A stretch of DNA of 64,000 bases. Origin: Escherichia phage Sa157lw. The stretch lies in the sequence record OK322699.1; one strand, given 5' to 3'. The notes beneath the pieces were generated by a model. The model made no database searches and was not told where the DNA came from. It worked only from the letters and a program-made list of their open reading frames with translations. Of this stretch, positions 3,830 to 57,972 are shown in pieces. The first letter of the stretch is position 1. Every line of letters begins with the position of its first letter. A program made the position numbers and the translations under genes.

Positions 3830-6571
3830 TTATGCCCCGAGAATACGTTTTGAAATAGCCTTCACAAATCTAGTGGCATCTTCAATCGCATTATGCGCCG
3901 TTGGCTGATATTTTGACATCATGAATTTCACCAAACGATGACATTCAACTCGGTATCGGTTTTTGGCCTTTTGCTTTTGAGATATAGTGCTAGTGACCTT
4001 TATCTCATCAAATCCTTCAGCAGTTAATTTTTCATTCAATAAATCAACAACTTGAGTTAACTGGTTACAGGCGCGGAAAAATCTCGTAGTTGAGAAAGGC
4101 ATTTCTATACGATAATGTAATTCCTCAACAGCCTTGCGGAAATAACCGTACCCCGATCCAGACGGGTTTCGTTTGGCCAGCATACGAACAACCTTCCATT
4201 CTTCTTCAGTGATTTGTTGTTTCGCATAACCGATGATTGCTTTTGCCCTGTGTTGATGATGAGCATAGCCATCCGTAACTTCTCCATGGGAATCAATCAA
4301 CAGCTTGGCACCATAATCAATGCGATGAGACATGATGTTTATGCCCTTGCGAAGTTTCAGGAGTTTCTTAGATTCAAGCGCCTGAAATTCATCTTTATAA
4401 TGCTCAAGCAACATATCAAACACTGCGTCAATGGGGATGAATACTTCTGGGAATTTCTTCATCATCGGAACAGATTTACGACGCGCAAGAACGATTGTTG
4501 GATGCGCTCCCAGCAAATCAAACATGTTTTCGTTTCCATTCTCGCCGAACTTCGTTCTTTCCATCGCTTCACGCAAATGTCCAGCCGTGGATTGTCGTAA
4601 GGTATTACCATGAATTTTATGGATACCTTCTCGGCCAGATACTTCGATATATACGATCTTTTTGCCTGAATCAATAATATCTGAAACGGTTTTTCCATCC
4701 AATTCATAAACGCTGTCGAAGTTAAATGAATTGTAATGGAAACTAAACATCCCAGGATCTTTTTCAACGGTCGGGCGAACATATTCCATTTCATGCATGA
4801 AATAAACTTCATCCGGATTGAATAAATCGCCAAAAACCTCGATCAGTTTATCGGCAAAGACCAGGTAGTCCGGTGTTGTTTCTTGTACACCGATCCATGA
4901 TTCAAAATAAGACTTCAATTCCTCATGGTTGGTGAATGATTCTTTATGTGCCGCCAGCTGATTCCGATTACTGAAATAATTTTCATTCGGCTTGACGACG
5001 ATAACGACATTGAAGTTATTGCGTGCTGTTTGTATCTTCAGGTTTCGAGCACGATTCGAGTTATCAATAATAACAGCAATTTTTGATTTAGATTTCAACC
5101 AATTTCCGACAGAGTTCACATAAATGCTGTCGTGTACTACACCGTCGTCGTGTACTTCAATTTCGTAAGGACTACCAATAGACCGGAAAGGTGCATCCAC
5201 AGAGTAATCGCGCACGACGTCCGGCGCTCCGATATAACGGAACGTGCCTTTGTAGAAACGGTTATCTGCAGGAAATTCTCGCTCCACTAATTTACGGAAA
5301 CCACTACCGAACATATCGGTCAATTGAGCCTTCTTCATATAAAGCATAAGAGGACCCATAGATTCGGCCTGGCGAAGTTCATACATCTTCGCCTGCATAA
5401 TATTGTCAGCCACATATTTGAACACTCGGTTCAGGCTTTCACGGGTGAACTCGTCATATGACAAGTCTTCACGTGATGGAGGAACATTCAATTCTCCAAG
5501 TTCAAAGAATGTATAGGAACTCGGGAATTTCTCCAGCACCGAACGTATTTCAGAATCCAATTGCTCAAGATCTATCGGATAAGAAACCCCGCCCATAACG
5601 GCATAGTGGGTATTATCAGAATCAGACTTCGGCTGAATATACGTGTTGCCCACACGGTTTTCAAAATTGATGTCCTGCCAGCGGAAAGAATAACTGGCAT
5701 TTTCAACCTTCGGGCGCATTGATGGGCGCATAACTCGACCCAGACGGACCAGTTCTTGTTCAAATGCGGTAAATCGCTGATTCTTTACAGGCACTTTAAC
5801 AGTCAGACCATTGAACTCATCAGTGTCTTCTGGTTTCGGATCACGGGTATCCAAATCCTTGGTGATCAGGTCCACAGTAGGAATCCTGTCCGCATTCAGA
5901 TACATAAGAAAGCGATACAGTTTACCTTCATAACGACTTTCTACAGTAAATGAGTCCGACACTGCAAATGGGGATTTAGAACCCAGCCCGAACGCGCCGA
6001 TCTGCCCGTCGTCGTCCTCTTTGGTGCTGTGGAAGAGTGTGGTGTACAAACCAGGTCCACGGATGATCTCGCCATCCTCAGCGCGGAATACCAACACCCC
6101 ATTGTAATAACCAGGCGTCCCAATAACAGCAGTGCTGTCAGGGATTTCATCTTCCTTCACAACAATGTTGCCTTCGACAAGCACTTCATCTTCCCGCGCT
6201 GCGATAGGTTCCCCGATAATCATTTCTAACGGAAGGCCAATCCCATAATCCTTGATTTCCAACCATGGTTCCATAACATCAGGTAAATGGACCACAACGG
6301 GCGTCCCTTTGGGAGCAAGATGCTTGCTGTATCTTTGGGGCATAGGGGTAAGAGGGGCATAATGGGACGGCAACCAACGCTGTTGGCGATCACGCATATT
6401 ATGCGAGTCTATACCGTTACATAACGTCTCACGCAAAGATGCGGCCTCTTTATATTTGTAGAGACTTGAAAATAATGTTTCAAATAATTTATCCGTCATC
6501 TTGACATTAAATGTCTGTCCGACGATAGTGGAAGAAGAGCGCACGAAATGCTCAGACTTGCGCATTTTCAT
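3830..6571 (-). CDS. rIIA: rIIA-like protein (GHKL ATPase-like N-terminal region)
   Basis: Motifs GAFGLGSKSPF, VMGGVSYPID and NVPPSREDLSYDEF match T4 RIIA (GGFGLGSKSPF, IYGGIVYPID, IAPSREALSLDD). Confidence 0.8.
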   Translation of the reverse strand: MKMRKSEHFVRSSSTIVGQTFNVKMTDKLFETLFSSLYKYKEAASLRETLCNGIDSHNMRDRQQRWLPSHYAPLTPMPQRYSKHLAPKGTPVVVHLPDVMEPWLEIKDYGIGLPLEMIIGEPIAAREDEVLVEGNIVVKEDEIPDSTAVIGTPGYYNGVLVFRAEDGEIIRGPGLYTTLFHSTKEDDDGQIGAFGLGSKSPFAVSDSFTVESRYEGKLYRFLMYLNADRIPTVDLITKDLDTRDPKPEDTDEFNGLTVKVPVKNQRFTAFEQELVRLGRVMRPSMRPKVENASYSFRWQDINFENRVGNTYIQPKSDSDNTHYAVMGGVSYPIDLEQLDSEIRSVLEKFPSSYTFFELGELNVPPSREDLSYDEFTRESLNRVFKYVADNIMQAKMYELRQAESMGPLMLYMKKAQLTDMFGSGFRKLVEREFPADNRFYKGTFRYIGAPDVVRDYSVDAPFRSIGSPYEIEVHDDGVVHDSIYVNSVGNWLKSKSKIAVIIDNSNRARNLKIQTARNNFNVVIVVKPNENYFSNRNQLAAHKESFTNHEELKSYFESWIGVQETTPDYLVFADKLIEVFGDLFNPDEVYFMHEMEYVRPTVEKDPGMFSFHYNSFNFDSVYELDGKTVSDIIDSGKKIVYIEVSGREGIHKIHGNTLRQSTAGHLREAMERTKFGENGNENMFDLLGAHPTIVLARRKSVPMMKKFPEVFIPIDAVFDMLLEHYKDEFQALESKKLLKLRKGINIMSHRIDYGAKLLIDSHGEVTDGYAHHQHRAKAIIGYAKQQITEEEWKVVRMLAKRNPSGSGYGYFRKAVEELHYRIEMPFSTTRFFRACNQLTQVVDLLNEKLTAEGFDEIKVTSTISQKQKAKNRYRVECHRLVKFMMSKYQPTAHNAIEDATRFVKAISKRILGA

Positions 6572-6642
6572 AGTATAGAATTCCTATTCAGTTTCAAAGG
6601 GAACACATTATTGGGGTATGGGTATGATACTAGCGGGGGACT

Positions 6643-6670
6643 CAATAGAAAAAGCCTCCAAAAGGAGGCT
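6643..6670 (-). terminator. intrinsic terminator (agcctcc-aaaa-ggaggct)
   Basis: Perfect 7-bp stem followed on the minus strand by ttttct, downstream of the stop at 6680. Confidence 0.5.
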
Positions 6671-6679
6671 TAATCAGGT

Positions 6680-7033
6680 TTAACTCTGGTCTACATTTAC
6701 AACGGCAGCGTTAAAGTTGAATGTCGGATGGGTAGCGCCTGGCTCTAACGTTTCTTCCAGATAACCTGCGATATTCCGCACCACGGTTTTAGGCTCAGAA
6801 CGTGAAGGCTTCGTTGCTCCAAGTTCAATGATACTGGAAGTAACTTGTTCGACTTGGGTGTGAGCCACAACAAAATGGTAACGACTACCAAACGCCGCCA
6901 CTTCAACTTCTGTAATTTCCAAACCACTCAATTCAGAGCTGCTCAACTGCTTCACATTCAGTTGTGAACGAAGGTGTTCCACAATGTTGCTGTAAACATA
7001 TTGTGGCGTGATCAGCTGTTCAATAGAACTCAT
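6680..7033 (-). CDS. hypothetical protein (117 aa)
   Basis: ATG at 7033 with GAGG RBS; start overlaps upstream stop (ATGA). Confidence 0.45.
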   Translation of the reverse strand: MSSIEQLITPQYVYSNIVEHLRSQLNVKQLSSSELSGLEITEVEVAAFGSRYHFVVAHTQVEQVTSSIIELGATKPSRSEPKTVVRNIAGYLEETLEPGATHPTFNFNAAVVNVDQS

Positions 7034-52071: not shown

Positions 52072-52754
52072 TCATGAGCAATATGTCAGAAAGGTTACTT
52101 GCGACGCTAGACGCGGTGACTGCCAGAGATGAAGTTGGTAAGGAGGCGATGGAAGCCGTCTCTCCACGTCCAGGTATTGACTTCGATGAAAAAACGGGCG
52201 AGTGGTTTGGTGAACGCCCAGAAGGTTATCAGCCGATTCCAGAACCTCCATCATTGGAAGATATCGCGTCCAAAGAATCCAAGGTTCCGGAGTTTGCGGA
52301 TACTGATGCCACAACAGATTACAAGCGGATACGCGATACAACATACGCCATGCAGGAAGCCACGATGTTCATGATGGGGCAAGCTGCTAAATTAGCTGCA
52401 TCTACCGAAGCCCCAAGAGCGTTTTCCGTGTTTCGTGAATTGGGCGAACTCATGCGCGGCCTGAACAAAGACCTGATGGAAAACCAAAAAACCATCAAAG
52501 CTGTGACAGGGGATAAAGAACCGCCGACTGATGACACAACCGTGGATGTTACCACTTCACCCGACGGGACCACAACAGTATCTGTTGGGAAGAAAGCGAG
52601 ATCTTCGCGCGATTTATTGAAAACGATCGAAGATGCACGCCGCCGCGCTGAAGAACGCGCCCAGGCAAAAGCCACCCAACAAACCGAAGATGAAATTATC
52701 GACGGTGAAACGGTTGACGTGAAGGAAGAAGACGATGGCGTATCAGAAGCGTGA
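52068..52754 (+). CDS. terminase small subunit (T4 gp16-like)
   Basis: ...TDYKRIRDTTYAMQEATMFMMGQAAKLAASTEAPRAFSVFRELGELM resembles T4 gp16 ...[47 protein letters not shown]; immediately upstream of large subunit. Confidence 0.7.
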   Translation: MIMSNMSERLLATLDAVTARDEVGKEAMEAVSPRPGIDFDEKTGEWFGERPEGYQPIPEPPSLEDIASKESKVPEFADTDATTDYKRIRDTTYAMQEATMFMMGQAAKLAASTEAPRAFSVFRELGELMRGLNKDLMENQKTIKAVTGDKEPPTDDTTVDVTTSPDGTTTVSVGKKARSSRDLLKTIEDARRRAEERAQAKATQQTEDEIIDGETVDVKEEDDGVSEA

Positions 52755-54945
52755 TATAGAATATGCTCCGATAAAAACGGGGTTTAAAATCGACGACGTG
52801 AAATTGCGTATGGACCAGACGTTCATGCGCAAGCCTTCTGTGCGCGCTCCACGAGTCGAGTTGATGCTAACAGATGAACAAGAAGACGAATTTGTTGAAT
52901 GTTCAATGGACGCGCATTACTTCGCTGCCAATTACTACAAGATAACGACAATCGATAAAGGCTTCATCCTTTTCGATATGCATGATTATCAGAAACAATT
53001 ATTTCACGATTTTCAAGATTATCGTTTCAATGCCGTTGTCCAGGCGCGTCAGTCCGGTAAATGCGTCCGTGGTGATACTCTTGTTTATGTCTATGATACA
53101 GTCAGTCAACAAGAGTTGCATCTCACCATAGAAGAGCTTCACAAGCGCTTCGAAGGACCGAACCATGCTGTGCCACTGAATACCATTGGCAACCACAATA
53201 AGTTTGTAGACAGCCGTTTCGGGAAACGATATTTTGTTGAGTCCGACACTGGCTGGGTTCCGGTTATTGCCGCTCATAAAACGAAAGAATACGCTGAATA
53301 CGTGGTCAGGACTGAAACCGGACGCACAATTCATGTCGCAGATGAGCACATGTTCTTCAATGAATATGGGCGCGAAGTATTTGCTAAAGACATGGAGGCC
53401 GGAGATGCCATAATGACCCAGGAGGGAATAGAATTCATCTCTGAGATCTGGGAGACTGGTGAGTACCACCACATGTATGACTTGCAAGTCAAGTCCAGCG
53501 ATCAACGTTATTACACGAATGGGTTCCTCAGCCATAATACCACGGTCGTGGCTGCGTTTCTTCTTTGGTATGCGATGTTCCACTCAGACAAAGAAATCGC
53601 GGTACTGGCAAACAAAGAGAAACAAGCGATTGAAATTCTTGACCGTATCAGGAAGGCGTATCAGGACCTCCCATTCTTCCTTCAGCAGGGTTGTGAGAAG
53701 TTTGGTTCTACACTGATAGAGTTTGAGAACGGCTCTAAGATATATGCTTATGCAACGTCTTCGGACTCTATTCGTGGTCGTTCTGTATCTCTCTTGTACG
53801 TGGACGAAGTCGCATTCATCGAAAATGACTTTGAATTTTGGGAATCAACATTCCCAGCGATCGCATCTGCTGATACTTCACGTTGTATTCTGACCAGTAC
53901 TCCGAAAGGCCAGCGAGGGTTGTTCTATGATATCGTCACCAAAGCAGACCCGCGCCATCCGCAATACAACGACTTCCATCTTACCGAAGTCCCTTGGTAC
54001 AAGGTTCCGGCGTACACCAAAGACCCTGATTGGGAAACCAAACAACGCGCTCGTCTGGGGGATGCCCGTTTTGACCAGGAATTTGGAATCAAGTTCCGTG
54101 GTTCTGTAGGTTCATTGATACCAGCCAAATGCTTGGATAAAATGACATCCAAGTTATATCGAGAGCCTAATGAGTTCACCAAAATTTACAAGGAATATGA
54201 CCCGCAACGCATCTACTTCGGGATCGCAGATACGGGGAAAGGTGTTGAAGGAGATTATTCGGTTCTGACAATTCTGGATATAACGGAATACCCGCATGTC
54301 ATAGCGGCCAAGTACAGGAACAATACAATACCTCCGATGATGTATGCATACACGATAGCTGATATGTGTACTGAATACGGGGAATGCCCTGTCCTTGTCG
54401 AGACGAATAACGACGTTGGTGGACAGGTTATCACGATCTTGTATCAAGAAATTGAGTATCCAGAGATCATATTCACGTCGACGGATAACAAAGGGACAGG
54501 GAAACGGATTGGTGGTCGTAAACCAGAGCCAGGCATTAACACCAACAGGAAAGTGCGATCTATTGGTTGTGCTAACCTGAAAGCGCTTATTGAGAAAGAA
54601 ATGTTGGTGATTGAAGATCAAGACACGATAGATGAACTCAGCACATTCGTGTTCCGTGGTGCGCGTTATGAAGCAGATGATGGATGTCACGACGACTGCG
54701 TTATGCCGTTGGTATTATATTCTTGGGCAGTTAAACAAGAATGGTTCAGTGATCTGACTTCTACCAGTATTTCTCAAGACATGAGAAATAGAATGTCTTC
54801 GACTGAGTCACAACAAGTATTCCCATTTGGTGGTTTAGTCGTGGGAGACACTCCATCTGGAACTGAGCATCTCCCTGGGTTCGGTGGTGTTCAAGTCTTC
54901 GACGAACGTTCAGGGATGACAATGGACGAGTGGTTTAAGAATTGA
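52735..54945 (+). CDS. terminase large subunit (T4 gp17-like), interrupted by a mini-intein
   Basis: Walker A reads ARQSGK|C...HN|TTVVAAFLLWYAMFH; without the insert it becomes ARQSGKTTVVA, matching T4 gp17 SRQLGKTTVVA. Confidence 0.9.
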   Translation: MAYQKRDIEYAPIKTGFKIDDVKLRMDQTFMRKPSVRAPRVELMLTDEQEDEFVECSMDAHYFAANYYKITTIDKGFILFDMHDYQKQLFHDFQDYRFNAVVQARQSGKCVRGDTLVYVYDTVSQQELHLTIEELHKRFEGPNHAVPLNTIGNHNKFVDSRFGKRYFVESDTGWVPVIAAHKTKEYAEYVVRTETGRTIHVADEHMFFNEYGREVFAKDMEAGDAIMTQEGIEFISEIWETGEYHHMYDLQVKSSDQRYYTNGFLSHNTTVVAAFLLWYAMFHSDKEIAVLANKEKQAIEILDRIRKAYQDLPFFLQQGCEKFGSTLIEFENGSKIYAYATSSDSIRGRSVSLLYVDEVAFIENDFEFWESTFPAIASADTSRCILTSTPKGQRGLFYDIVTKADPRHPQYNDFHLTEVPWYKVPAYTKDPDWETKQRARLGDARFDQEFGIKFRGSVGSLIPAKCLDKMTSKLYREPNEFTKIYKEYDPQRIYFGIADTGKGVEGDYSVLTILDITEYPHVIAAKYRNNTIPPMMYAYTIADMCTEYGECPVLVETNNDVGGQVITILYQEIEYPEIIFTSTDNKGTGKRIGGRKPEPGINTNRKVRSIGCANLKALIEKEMLVIEDQDTIDELSTFVFRGARYEADDGCHDDCVMPLVLYSWAVKQEWFSDLTSTSISQDMRNRMSSTESQQVFPFGGLVVGDTPSGTEHLPGFGGVQVFDERSGMTMDEWFKN
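53062..53538 (+). mobile_element. mini-intein (159 aa, no homing endonuclease domain) in the terminase P-loop
   Basis: Begins Cys (CVRGDTLVYV), block-B-like GRTIHVADEH, ends ...FLSHN with +1 Thr; length multiple of 3. Confidence 0.8.
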
Positions 54946-54955: not shown

Positions 54956-54997
54956 TCTTTCAAATTGAGCGAAACTCTACCGAGAAGGAATAACATT

Positions 54998-56893
54998 ATG
55001 GCAACTCAAAGCTTCAGCGTTGCGCCGTCCGTACAGTGGACTGAGCGTGATGCCACGCTTCAGACTTCTCCGTCCGTGGTTGTTCAGGGCGCGACAGTCG
55101 GCAAATTTCAATGGGGTGAAGTCGAACTCCCAGTGCTGGTGACTGGTGGTGAGACGGGTTTGGTGAAGAAATTCTTCAAACCTAATGACAGCACTGCGAC
55201 AGATTTCCTTGTGATTGCAGACTTTTTGTCTTACAGCTCTATGGCATGGGTCACTCGTGTTGTTGGTCCTCTGGCCAAGAACTCTGTCACCAAAGGCCAG
55301 ACAGCCATCACGATCAAAAACAAGCTGGATTTTGAAACAGCAAGTCCGTCAGCGTCTATCACTTGGGCTGGTCGTTATCCAGGATCTCTGGGGAATGACA
55401 TCGCCATCAATGTTTGTGACTCCGCTGGATTCCCGACATGGGAATTCCGTAACAACTTTGCGTACGCACCTCAGTCTGGTGAATTCCATGTTGTGGTTGT
55501 AGACAAAGTTGGGCGCATTACTGACTCTGCTGGTGCGGTTGGTCAGGTTGACCGTATCTCTGTTTCTGGCACGGCAACCGCAGCTGGCACCATCAGTGTG
55601 GCGGGTGAAGATATCGCATATCTGGATACTGATACTCCGGCCACTTTGGCGACCAAAATTGGCGCGGCGCTGACGGCGCTAACAGATGTTTATTCTTCTG
55701 TCGTTGTTAAGTCTAACACTGTCATCGTGACCCATAAAGCCATTGGTCCCCAGACAGTTACTGCTATTGTTCCAGATGATAAGGGGCTGACTGCAACCGC
55801 CGTGATTACCACTGTTGGCGCATCTGGTTCTATTATCGAAAAATACGAACTCATGCAGAACACACAGGGTTCCAAAAAGTCCGATGGCGCGAATGCGTAC
55901 TTCAAAGATGTCATCAATGATACATCAAATTGGGTGTACACCTTCGCCACCGCTCTGGCCGCAGGTGTTGTTGAATTAGAAGGCGGCGTAGACGACTACA
56001 ATATCAACCGTGTCGCGGCTATCCAAGTTCTGAACAACGCCGAAGCATATGATGCGAAGCCAGTATTTGCATACTGTGAAGAGTTGATTGAACAACAGGC
56101 ATTAATCGACTTGTCTACCGAGCGAAAAGACACCGTTTCCTTCGTGTCGCCTTTGCGTGATACTGTGGTCGGCAACCGTGGCCGTGAGATGGACGATGTG
56201 GTCGCTTGGCGTGAAAGTCTGGTGCGCGACTCCTCCTATTTCTTCATGGACGACAACTGGGCATACGTGTACGATAAATACAACGATAAGATGCGCTGGA
56301 TCCCTGCTTGCGGCGGTACAGCGGGTGTTTGGGCACGTAGTATTGAAATCGCGGGTATCTACAAATCTCCTGCGTTCCACAACCGTGGCAAATACAACAA
56401 CTACAATCGAATGGCGTGGTCTGCGTCTTCCGATGAACGTGCCGTGTTGTACCGCAACCAGATTAACAGCATCGTGACCTTCTCCAATGAAGGTATCGTG
56501 TTGTATGGTGACAAAACTGGTCTGACTCGTCCGTCTGCTTTCGATCGTATCAATGTTCGCGGTCTGTTTATTATGGCAGAACAGAACATCGCTGCAATCG
56601 CCAAATATTACCTTGGTGAGAACAATGATGCGTTCACTCGCAGTCTGTTCAGCAACGCTGTTCGTCCTTATATTCGCCAGCTGGCAAATATGGGTGCGAT
56701 CTACGATGGTAAAGTCAAGTGTGACGAAGATAACAACACTGCTGACGTTATTGCGGCAAACCAGATGGTCGCTGGTATCTGGCTGAAACCGGAATACAGC
56801 ATCAATTGGGTGTATCTTGACTTTGCTGCAGTTCGTCCGGATATGGAGTTCTCGGAAATTGAATCCGGCGGCGGCATCGTTGCTGCTTCTTAA
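54998..56893 (+). CDS. tail sheath protein (T4 gp18-like)
   Basis: VGKFQWGEVELPV vs T4 AGKFQWGPAFQIK; C-terminal YVYDKYNDKMRWIP...VLYGDKTGLTRPSAFDRINVRGLF...NDAFTRS matches T4 gp18. Start at ATG 54998 (AGAAGGAA RBS). Confidence 0.9.
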   Translation: MATQSFSVAPSVQWTERDATLQTSPSVVVQGATVGKFQWGEVELPVLVTGGETGLVKKFFKPNDSTATDFLVIADFLSYSSMAWVTRVVGPLAKNSVTKGQTAITIKNKLDFETASPSASITWAGRYPGSLGNDIAINVCDSAGFPTWEFRNNFAYAPQSGEFHVVVVDKVGRITDSAGAVGQVDRISVSGTATAAGTISVAGEDIAYLDTDTPATLATKIGAALTALTDVYSSVVVKSNTVIVTHKAIGPQTVTAIVPDDKGLTATAVITTVGASGSIIEKYELMQNTQGSKKSDGANAYFKDVINDTSNWVYTFATALAAGVVELEGGVDDYNINRVAAIQVLNNAEAYDAKPVFAYCEELIEQQALIDLSTERKDTVSFVSPLRDTVVGNRGREMDDVVAWRESLVRDSSYFFMDDNWAYVYDKYNDKMRWIPACGGTAGVWARSIEIAGIYKSPAFHNRGKYNNYNRMAWSASSDERAVLYRNQINSIVTFSNEGIVLYGDKTGLTRPSAFDRINVRGLFIMAEQNIAAIAKYYLGENNDAFTRSLFSNAVRPYIRQLANMGAIYDGKVKCDEDNNTADVIAANQMVAGIWLKPEYSINWVYLDFAAVRPDMEFSEIESGGGIVAAS

Positions 56894-56899
56894 AAGATC

Positions 56900-56928
56900 A
56901 ACCCCGCTTCGGCGGGGTTTTCCTTTAT
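56900..56928 (+). terminator. intrinsic terminator (aaccccgc-ttcg-gcggggtt)
   Basis: GC stem and T-rich run after stop 56893. Confidence 0.55.
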
Positions 56929-56949
56929 CCCACATATTTGAGTTATTGA

Positions 56950-57408
56950 ATGATATACGCATACAAAATTGAAATGGTTTGTAATGGAAAGGTCTACATC
57001 GGTGTGACCAATGACCCACAACGAAGATATGATCAGCATTTTGCGAATGCCTTTCATCATGGCGTCCAAAGTGAATTGTATGACGCCATGCGTAAGTATG
57101 GAACATCTGGATTTACTTTCGTTGTAATTGCTCAGACCGATGAAGTCCATAAATGGGAATTAGAGAAGCAACTCATCGCTCAATATAATTCTTATGAGAT
57201 GGGTTACAACATGAATAAAGGCGGTAATGATGGAAGTCATATGCTGGGTAAAACTGCAGCAAAATTGACATCCACAGGTGAACACATTGGTCTTGTTTCT
57301 CTCATAGATCCCCGTTGGGAATTGTGTGAAATCGAACCTGTTTCAAGTAATGTTCATCATAGTTTCGATCTTTCTTCTATGAAGATTAAAAGATTGACGA
57401 CTAATTAG
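56950..57408 (+). CDS. free-standing GIY-YIG homing endonuclease (152 aa)
   Basis: IYAYKIEMVCNGKVYIGVTNDPQRRYDQH is a GIY-YIG core; inserted between sheath and tube genes that are adjacent in T4. Confidence 0.7.
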   Translation: MIYAYKIEMVCNGKVYIGVTNDPQRRYDQHFANAFHHGVQSELYDAMRKYGTSGFTFVVIAQTDEVHKWELEKQLIAQYNSYEMGYNMNKGGNDGSHMLGKTAAKLTSTGEHIGLVSLIDPRWELCEIEPVSSNVHHSFDLSSMKIKRLTTN

Positions 57409-57438
57409 AATTGTGTACTCTTATTTGGAGATATAAAA

Positions 57439-57972
57439 ATGGCGACAGTCAATGAGTTTCGCGCAGCCATGTCACGAGGGGGCGGCGTACAACGCCAACA
57501 CCGCTGGCGTGTGACTGTAAACTTTCCTTCTTTTGTTGCTGGTTCCGACACAATTCGCGACGTGTCCTTGCTGGCTGTAACTACCAACACCCCGACAGGT
57601 CAGCTGGGTGAAATTCTGGTGCCCTGGGGTGGTCGTGAACTTCCATTCCCAGGCGACCGTCGTTTCGAAGCACTGCCTGTAACATTCATTAACGTTGTGA
57701 ACAACGCGCCGTACAACGCATTTGAAGTGTGGCAGCAATTCATCAATGGTAGTGAAAACAACCGTGCCAGCGCGAATCCAGATGATTATTTCCGTGATAT
57801 CATCATGGAGCTTCTGGATGCGAATGACAATGTCACCAAGACATGGACTTTGCAGGGTGGCTGGCCTCAAAACCTCGGCCAATTGGAACTCGATATGTCT
57901 GCGATGGACTCTTATACACAGTTCACCGTCGATCTGCGTTATTTCCAAGCCGTGTCAGACAAATCTTTATAA
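57439..57972 (+). CDS. tail tube protein (T4 gp19-like)
   Basis: C-terminal TKTWTLQGGWPQNLGQLELDMSAMDSYTQFTVDL vs T4 gp19 TKEIEIKGLWPTNVGELQLDWDSNNEIQTFEVTL. Confidence 0.85.
   Translation: MATVNEFRAAMSRGGGVQRQHRWRVTVNFPSFVAGSDTIRDVSLLAVTTNTPTGQLGEILVPWGGRELPFPGDRRFEALPVTFINVVNNAPYNAFEVWQQFINGSENNRASANPDDYFRDIIMELLDANDNVTKTWTLQGGWPQNLGQLELDMSAMDSYTQFTVDLRYFQAVSDKSL

Follow-up and report, generated by a model that had tools for sequence, protein, structure and literature searches.

T4 has its tail sheath and tail tube genes side by side; in Escherichia phage Sa157lw a short open reading frame (ORF) for a GIY-YIG protein stands between them. What kind of element is this gene: a homing endonuclease that invades its site, a nuclease that has settled there, or the remnant of something longer? 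We analysed a window of 64,000 nucleotides of the phage genome (sequence record OK322699.1) and compared its sheath-to-tube region with the same region of relatives. The ORF has an ATG start and lies exactly where the initial annotation had described it (Table 1), and the claim made there of a 152-aa GIY-YIG gene between tail sheath and tail tube genes is borne out by the frame itself and by its Pfam and PHROG matches. The genes run in the order large terminase, sheath, ORF, tube and T4-type portal. The adjacency of sheath and tube in T4, with the ORF as an insertion between them, also holds, and the two genes are likewise adjacent in five Agtrevirus phages. A mechanical ORF list starts the sheath gene at a TTG at 54965, but the true start is likely the ATG at 54998, giving 631 aa as in the annotation of relatives, where sheath genes are 1896 nt long; the sheath of PhiSH19 also has 631 aa (PMC3220722). 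The sheath-to-tube segment is 99.8% identical to those of Salmonella phages AR2819 and Sajous1 and 99.3% identical to those of Vi01, Marshall and Mooltan, all of them Kuttervirus of the family Ackermannviridae. The source phage is thus a Kuttervirus (Vi01-like Ackermannviridae).

The gene itself is already known as an annotation. The records of Vi01, Marshall and Det7, like dozens of others, label it 'GIY-YIG endonuclease' or 'GIY-YIG homing endonuclease', and besides Vi01 over 100 relatives have it annotated. For PhiSH19, a GIY-YIG endonuclease of 152 aa, flanked by tail tube and tail sheath and sharing 95% identity with that of Vi01, was listed in 2011 (PMC3220722). Literature searches gave no experimental work on this protein, be it on activity, target site or expression. 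The ORF is an ordinary feature of these phages, to which its truncated architecture and the history of its insertion site add detail only.

Table 1. Features of the sheath-to-tube region and genes found at the same site in relatives ('slot', the sheath-tube spacer)
Feature	Position	Strand	Basis or occurrence
Tail sheath gene, T4 gp18-like, left flank	54998..56893	+	Pfam Phage_sheath_1C, PHROG 23
Intrinsic terminator hairpin after sheath, AACCCCGC-TTCG-GCGGGGTT then T-run	56900..56919	+	Terminator scan, junction sequences
Segment absent from Agtrevirus empty alleles, ~468 nt	56934..57401	.	EspM4VN, Ag3, P46FS4 vs both junctions
GIY-YIG nuclease ORF, PHROG 5123	56950..57408	+	152 aa
GIY-YIG catalytic domain, residues 1-93	56950..57228	+	PDB profile, Foldseek, invariant residues
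Conserved linker-like tail, residues 94-148	57229..57393	+	Alignments, dN/dS
Motif ACTAATTAGAATTGTGTA 5' of tube gene	57400..57417	+	Junction alignments, motif scans
Tail tube gene, T4 gp19-like, right flank	57439..57972	+	PHROG 45 E=6e-57; Pfam Phage_T4_gp19
232-240-aa GIY-YIG gene, PHROG 314	slot	+	Se_EM4, allotria, FSL SP-029; SKML-39, Dickeya XF4, others
262-264-aa GIY-YIG gene	slot	-	Det7 gene 5, SW16-7, Klebsiella cp18
596-aa Hef-like nuclease gene	slot	-	Dickeya Ds25CZ

The N-terminal part of the protein is an I-TevI-type catalytic domain. Pfam GIY-YIG (PF01541) matches residues 2-87 at 41.2 bits (E=2e-10) against a curated cutoff of 22.6, and PHROG 5123 matches end to end (152/152, E=1.4e-93), its family name, 'homing endonuclease with GIY-YIG motif', being an annotation and not a tested function. 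Residues Y5, Y16, R26, H30, E72 and N87 correspond to Y6, Y17, R27, H31, E75 and N90 of I-TevI, and these six catalytic residues, together with Y16-I-G18, are invariant across nine cluster representatives. By its motifs and active-site residues the protein belongs to the GIY-YIG superfamily (PF01541/CL0418), and the core that the initial annotation had read from the sequence is confirmed, with its catalytic residues intact. A profile of nine homologues retrieved only the I-TevI catalytic domain from the PDB (E=2.4e-6, residues 5-89 against 6-92). An AlphaFold2 model made from the nine-sequence alignment has moderate confidence over residues 1-80 (pLDDT 63-79). When this core was submitted to Foldseek, the top three matches were chains of the I-TevI catalytic domain (prob 1.0, TM 0.71-0.73 on the target), and I-TevI was the only significant match among the 50 listed. 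The predicted core has the GIY-YIG fold, a three-stranded beta-sheet flanked by helices. The I-TevI-type family NCBIfam TIGR01453 is matched over positions 5-93 of 215 only, with 47.6 bits, below its cutoff of 56.05.

The catalytic domain is followed by a tail with the consensus SH..G...A.L.STGEHIG.VSL.DPRW.L.EIE...V.H.F....IKR, which is as well conserved as the domain itself and has its counterpart in residues ~100-143 of the 232-240-aa paralogues. Pfam detected no domain in residues 96-152, so that no DNA-binding domain is recognised there, and the model is uninformative on the fold of the tail (pLDDT 30-50). If the tail should be a small DNA-binding element of an unrecognised kind, the protein would be a normal site-specific enzyme. 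Short size is the rule among homologues: a search among 5.8 billion proteins gave nine clusters of 105-174 aa, eight of them of 151-174 aa and the 105-aa cluster covering 69% of the query, and the long C-terminal extension occurs in none of the nine. In the five loci studied closely the frame is unbroken and 151-156 aa long, and of 210 matching records 196 span 80% or more of its length, a figure for coverage and not for intact frames. A pseudogene or a longer, frameshifted gene is ruled out in the window, since the terminator directly upstream and the 30 nt between the stop codon and the ATG of the tube gene leave no room for lost coding sequence around the ORF.

GIY-YIG homing endonucleases have two domains, an N-terminal nuclease and, beyond a linker, a sequence-tolerant DNA-binding anchor at the C-terminus (PMC3664794), and this architecture is not that of the 152-aa protein. 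It aligns, with 40-42% identity, only to residues ~1-143 of the 232-240-aa paralogues found at the same site. Global alignment skips 80-110 residues, beginning right after the invariant His137, where the long forms continue with HK(D/E)..(T/S)(R/K)..S, a NUMOD3-like stretch and an F.L(I/L)SP.GE... module. The ORF therefore lacks a C-terminal module of ~95 aa that its paralogues retain, and from the architecture of the family this is presumed to be the DNA-binding part. An assignment of the extra segment as a NUMOD or helix-turn-helix module was not supported: Pfam found no domain in the isolated C-terminal segments, a PDB profile search with the long paralogues returned the catalytic domain only, and NUMOD3 gave one faint match (E=0.067). 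The C-terminal ends of the short and long forms align weakly (KRLTT against ERLNTT; in Serratia, LNRIV against LIRIV). This is suggestive only of an origin of the short form from the long one by internal deletion, and much of the likeness of the ends comes from the shared promoter-like motif, translated in frame.

Relatives that lack the insert, with which the initial annotation had proposed a comparison, do exist. Five Agtrevirus phages (EspM4VN, Ag3, P46FS4, MK-13 and Gloob) give one colinear alignment across the sheath-tube junction, with an empty spacer of ~75-78 bp that consists of the terminator, its T-run and then (C)ACTAA(A/T)TAGAATTGTGTAACTC...GGAG...ATG. The segment missing from these alleles comprises a 16-nt leader and the ORF, its boundary being uncertain by 2 nt, as AC stands at either side, and the sheath-tube span of EspM4VN is 470 bp shorter than that of the query. 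The right edge of the insert adjoins a motif that was already there and from which the last codons and the stop of the ORF are drawn. The Agtrevirus site might alternatively be read as a deletion scar that kept the 3' end of the ORF; a pre-existing tube promoter region explains the same sequence equally well, and we favour it. A free-standing position between conserved genes, with empty-site alleles in relatives, is what is expected of a homing endonuclease, and the argument that would have counted against homing, that no empty-site alleles are to be found, falls away with the Agtrevirus sites. These sites were, however, seen only in Agtrevirus and in none of the genera that carry the ORF, and the Kuttervirus phages that lack it (Se_EM4 and allotria) have the long gene in its place.

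The spacer has received other genes as well (Table 1). Besides the 152-aa ORF and its 232-240-aa paralogue, GIY-YIG genes of the opposite orientation and a Hef-like nuclease gene occur there, and Ds25CZ, which carries the last of these, also keeps a remnant of the long plus-strand gene. The occupant of the slot in Limestonevirus is known as F-LimVIII, a Hef-like free-standing endonuclease beside the tail tube gene (PMC3296691). Many Kuttervirus have two occupants, and the extra gene then always lies on the sheath side of the 152-aa ORF. The sheath-tube spacer is thus an endonuclease hot spot, for which no fewer than four occupants, unrelated or paralogous, are known.

The signals around the ORF correspond in part to what the initial annotation had described, a terminator and a ribosome-binding site of its own. 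The terminator after the sheath gene is real, with an 8-bp stem of which 6 pairs are GC and a T-run, and it is kept in both occupied and empty alleles; the terminator scan found none 3' of the ORF. The ribosome-binding site is weak, only a GAG ~9-11 nt 5' of the ATG, a position at which Klebsiella relatives have GGAG. At the other end, the stop codon (TAG, 57406-57408) sits within ACTAATTAGAATTGTGTA, a motif that is already present in the empty sites and supplies the stop of the ORF. T4 late promoters have the sequence TATAAATA. The late-gene strand of the window has nine copies of CTAAATA, one of them just 5' of the sheath gene (54949) and another just 3' of the portal gene (59730), ACTAATTA is found 5' of both the tube and the portal genes, and the CTAAATA/ACTAATTA core recurs 5' of sheath, tube and portal genes; by analogy with T4, this region is probably the T4-type late promoter region of the tube gene. 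The longer TAGAATTGTRTA was rejected as a general promoter motif, as it is unique in the 64-kb window. A motif scan of the window found no late-promoter-like motif 5' of the ORF, so that expression would probably depend on read-through of the sheath terminator. A predicted RNA structure, weak and with a z-score that includes the terminator hairpin, pairs the start region of the ORF with downstream codons and may occlude it. With no promoter motif of its own, a weak ribosome-binding site and this predicted structure, expression of the ORF could be very low.

Over longer evolutionary distances the ORF has diverged along with its neighbours. Its nucleotide identity to Klebsiella phages is 79%, against 81-84% for sheath and tube, and to Serratia phage 3M 63%, against 71-78%. 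Between Kuttervirus and Taipeivirus, dS by the Nei-Gojobori method is 1.37-1.49 for the ORF and 1.18-1.63 for sheath and tube; these values are close to saturation, and rough equality of the ORF and its flanks is all that can be claimed from them. By this match, the ORF and its neighbours have been passed on together since before the split of Kuttervirus, Taipeivirus and Miltonvirus. The dN/dS of the ORF (Nei-Gojobori) is ~0.08 (catalytic half 0.073, tail 0.080), so that it has been selected as an intact protein since its entry; the ORF is under strong purifying selection. Occupancy agrees with this picture when records with the ORF are counted against records with the tube gene, by organism name and with counts inflated by RefSeq/GenBank duplicates: 44 of 45 for Klebsiella, 11 of 11 for Serratia, 134 of 164 for Salmonella and 19 of 28 for Escherichia, against 0/19 for Dickeya, 0/6 for Shigella and 0/3 for Enterobacter. 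The gene is nearly fixed in Kuttervirus, Taipeivirus and Miltonvirus and looks like a long-term resident rather than a recently invading element.

Within Kuttervirus the pattern is different. Between the window and Det7, identity is 91.2% in the sheath gene, 99.6% in the ORF and 93.1% in the tube gene, and the near-identity reaches ~100 nt into the tube gene. Among Kuttervirus copies of the ORF, 142 of 151 are at least 95% identical to that of the window, and 135 tube genes stand at 90-95%. Within the genus, then, the ORF has diverged less than its flanks, and between genera it co-diverges with them. This shows local gene conversion at the site, the cause of which could equally be the long neighbouring endonucleases or general recombination. 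The one clean tract belongs to the long gene: apart from that gene itself, which FSL SP-029 carries, this phage and the window differ over ~4.4 kb by only 21 mismatches, all of them within the final ~150 nt of the sheath gene, a textbook co-conversion tract of the long gene. In the relatives compared, no tract attributable to the ORF was found. The same comparison shows genomes of the window type to be susceptible as recipients, with no protection of the site by the short ORF. With its patchy distribution and its clean co-conversion tract, the long gene behaves like an active homing endonuclease, unlike the short ORF.

A terminase intein had been counted with the ORF as one of two selfish elements near each other. 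The intein is real: the insert at 53062-53538 is a 159-aa segment with Cys1 at its start, His-Asn at its end and Thr as the next residue; it interrupts the Walker A motif as SGK|TT and matches NCBIfam intein_Nterm at 26.8 bits against a cutoff of 24.5. As a mini-intein, however, it lacks an endonuclease domain. In a comparison of lengths, the terminase gene measures 2208-2211 nt in Kuttervirus, Agtrevirus, Limestonevirus, Taipeivirus and Miltonvirus, and these equal lengths suggest that the intein is fixed in the family and not currently mobile. This weakens its description as a second selfish element.

Taken together, the ORF is a GIY-YIG gene of homing-endonuclease origin that lies in an insertion hot spot, is truncated and has long been vertically co-inherited. 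The initial description as a homing endonuclease agrees with its free-standing position, the hot spot, the empty alleles and the intact catalytic residues; the truncation, the near-fixation, the co-divergence with the flanks and the lack of a tract of its own do not fit it. Several known systems bear on what the protein may do. I-TevI and I-BmoI have in common with it the N-terminal catalytic domain and the six catalytic residues, but they are intron-encoded proteins of 245-266 aa, whereas the ORF is free-standing, has 152 aa and lacks the zinc finger, NUMOD3 helix and helix-turn-helix DNA-binding domain of those enzymes. A closer likeness is to I-BmoI N154, which has the same architecture of catalytic domain plus linker at ~150 aa. 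That protein is an artificial fragment of another enzyme, with a linker not detectably similar to that of the ORF, and the likeness is architectural only. The KD of N154 for DNA is ~500 nM and that of the full-length enzyme ~10 nM; at high concentration, N154 breaks down DNA without specificity (PMC3664794). Like the ORF, the T4 Seg genes (SegA-G, for example SegB; PMC2330249) are free-standing GIY-YIG genes between conserved phage genes; both show presence/absence polymorphism among relatives, and both would be expected to act in mixed infections. The ORF differs from Seg genes in lacking the C-terminal half and in being nearly fixed in three genera. Within the slot, the 232-240-aa plus-strand gene (as in Se_EM4, allotria and FSL SP-029, and CBA120 orf195-like) is a paralogue with 40-42% identity over residues ~5-140. 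Insertion point and orientation are shared with the ORF, and its 3' end likewise enters the motif, here ACTAATTAGAATTGTGTAA, but it has ~95 extra C-terminal residues and is patchy across four genera. Seg proteins have ~200-250 aa, with C-terminal DNA-binding regions.

The reading we tentatively put first, at somewhat less than an even chance, is that of a long-resident, low-affinity nuclease of Seg/I-TevI-type origin that would still be active, cut down to the catalytic domain and its tail, which acts by Seg-like marker exclusion. The ~468-nt cassette lies between the sheath terminator and the promoter-like motif of the tube gene, a position that different endonuclease genes have invaded repeatedly across the Ackermannviridae, and the short gene entered before Kuttervirus, Taipeivirus and Miltonvirus diverged. 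It would be transcribed late, through read-through of the sheath terminator, and translated from its weak ribosome-binding site into a presumably monomeric, one-metal GIY-YIG nuclease. Without a DNA-binding anchor, this protein may bind weakly and cut with relaxed specificity, by analogy with I-BmoI N154. By nicking or cutting the DNA of co-infecting relatives near the locus it would stimulate recombination there, so that the phage's own sheath-tube region would be favoured in inheritance, as in the marker exclusion of Seg genes and not by precise, high-affinity homing. The marker-exclusion reading is weakened by the strong purifying selection, which is expected of a domesticated gene as well.

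Rather unlikely, in our estimate, is a classical, autonomous homing endonuclease that cuts a specific site in sheath-tube junctions without the ORF or in a neighbouring gene and is copied in by repair of the double-strand break, with the tail as its compact DNA-binding element. Such an enzyme would have the intact I-TevI-type active site and the free-standing, intergenic place in a hot spot with empty alleles that the ORF has; the tail, conserved as much as the catalytic domain, and the shallower genealogy of the ORF, relative to its flanks, within Kuttervirus also speak for it. It should not, however, lack the defining C-terminal module that the paralogues at the site retain, nor be near fixation with a synonymous divergence between genera equal to that of the flanks. 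The carrying genera, moreover, offer no empty sites, Kuttervirus without the ORF having the long gene, and the only clean co-conversion tract is the long gene's.

Less probable again is a domesticated nuclease whose role benefits the phage and has nothing to do with its own mobility, for example an EndoII-like attack on unmodified host or competitor DNA. A dN/dS of ~0.08 maintained over genus-level divergence and near-fixation in three genera speak for this reading. T4 endonuclease II (DenA) is, like the ORF product, a small, essentially single-domain phage GIY-YIG protein, so that the single-domain size is comparable, and modified phage DNA could be spared. EndoII has 136 aa. The two differ in genomic context, and PDB sequence searches with the single sequence and with the profile (E<=10) gave no likeness to EndoII beyond the superfamily, nor was it among the 50 Foldseek matches listed; lacking a match in sequence or fold, the protein is not assigned to an EndoII-like family, and I-TevI alone is matched. 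A late structural operon, with no recognisable promoter of its own, would be an odd place for a host-shutoff function, and the gene is absent from Agtrevirus, Limestonevirus and some Kuttervirus. In favour of domestication, ViI DNA carries 5-NeOmdU (PMC6449724), Vi01-like phages protect their own DNA with hypermodified thymidine, which could make a low-specificity nuclease tolerable, and the I-BmoI N154 analogue does cut non-specifically (PMC3664794). We hold it to be quite improbable that the ORF is specifically a domesticated homing-endonuclease fragment that lost its anchor and was kept through the radiation of Kuttervirus, Taipeivirus and Miltonvirus for a low-specificity activity serving the phage; if true, this would be a functional convergence with T4 EndoII in which the phage's own hypermodified-thymidine DNA is spared.

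That the ORF is a non-functional relic, the decaying and passively carried remnant of a longer homing-endonuclease gene, is very improbable: the truncated architecture relative to the paralogues, the weak ribosome-binding site, the lack of an own promoter and the true long-gene remnant in Dickeya Ds25CZ, which proves that decay occurs at the site, would suit it, but the frame is intact in five loci (151-156 aa) and in eight of nine cluster representatives (151-174 aa), no catalytic residue varies, and a dN/dS of ~0.08 in both halves at a dS of ~1.4 effectively refutes it.

Kuttervirus phages are in use for biocontrol, and the ORF raises no safety concern for that use. For the biology of phage selfish elements the locus is of modest interest, as one spacer that has taken up at least four kinds of endonuclease gene and in which an empty site, the clean co-conversion tract of one invader and an older, truncated resident under purifying selection can be seen together. 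The resident ORF is a natural counterpart of the 'nuclease domain plus linker' fragments engineered for genome-editing fusions, and a candidate case of endonuclease domestication.

Over about 4.4 kb, the window and the corresponding locus of phage FSL SP-029 are identical apart from 21 mismatches, all clustered at the 3' end of the sheath gene. This cluster adjoins an additional 240-aa GIY-YIG gene that FSL SP-029 carries in the sheath–tube spacer, one of the long (232–240-aa) paralogues of the 152-aa window ORF. The cluster looks like a co-conversion tract left by recent homing of the long gene. Such a tract suggests that the long gene has its target in the sheath 3' end or the terminator region, and that genomes of the window type would be susceptible to it.

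In Dickeya phage Ds25CZ, the same spacer holds a 596-aa Hef-like gene, with a second copy of a terminator hairpin (CATGCCCTCTTCGGAGGGCATTTCAATG) on its 3' side. Also present are 39 codons (MITNSH...TTGWQLIRIV*) left from the 3' end of a long plus-strand GIY-YIG gene. Because the hairpin is duplicated and this remnant persists, the Ds25CZ locus provides evidence of successive invasions of the spacer, accompanied by decay.

Features at the sheath–tube and terminase loci
Feature	Coordinates	Setting
Mismatch cluster	window ~56745-56893	last ~150 nt of sheath gene; comparison with FSL SP-029
Second terminator hairpin copy and gene remnant	L004 (Dickeya phage Ds25CZ locus) 6412-6701	downstream of 596-aa Hef-like gene
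Mini-intein, 159 aa	window 53062-53538	inside the gene for the large subunit of terminase (52735-54945); Cys1 ... His-Asn, then Thr+1

Just 3' of the terminator in the window (56920-56990), the predicted RNA structure pairs the GAG/AUG region of the ORF with codons ~5-12 (overall z-score -2.9, terminator hairpin included). This modelled pairing could limit translation from read-through transcripts; translation of some T4 endonuclease genes is known to be limited in such a way. As for transcription, CTAAATA occurs nine times on the plus strand of the window (30176, 34038, 37266, 39476, 44184, 50699, 54949, 59730 and 60948), including one copy directly 5' of the sheath gene and another shortly after the portal gene. 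A variant, ACTAATTA, lies upstream of the tube and portal genes (57400 and about 58008). In these phages, the motif probably serves as the core of the T4-type late promoter.

The sheath gene opens at TTG 54965 in the mechanical ORF list (642 aa); the 631-aa annotation of relatives corresponds to ATG 54998, which GAGAAGGAA precedes. In Enterobacter phage EspM4VN (NC_049384.1), the tail tube CDS is annotated 72 nt too late (L001:2170-2241), with the conserved N-terminus MATVNEFRAAMSRG... starting at L001:2170. There, ...CACGTGGGGCGGCG... (~L001:2205-2225) puts the frame out relative to other phages, and the record may thus contain a sequencing indel. MN871475.1 ('Pseudomonas phage Pa-sanjiao') and OR844942.1 ('Enterococcus phage Efm 3-10') carry this Kuttervirus sheath–ORF–tube region (92-96% identity) and may be mislabelled or contaminated, since the hosts named seem implausible for such phages.

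The terminase large subunit harbours a mini-intein that interrupts its Walker A motif between ARQSGK and TTVV. It scores above the cutoff for NCBIfam intein_Nterm and below that for Pfam Intein_splicing, and its 159 residues contain no homing-endonuclease domain. Loci of five Ackermannviridae genera have terminase genes of equal length (2208-2211 nt), which suggests that the intein is fixed across the whole family.
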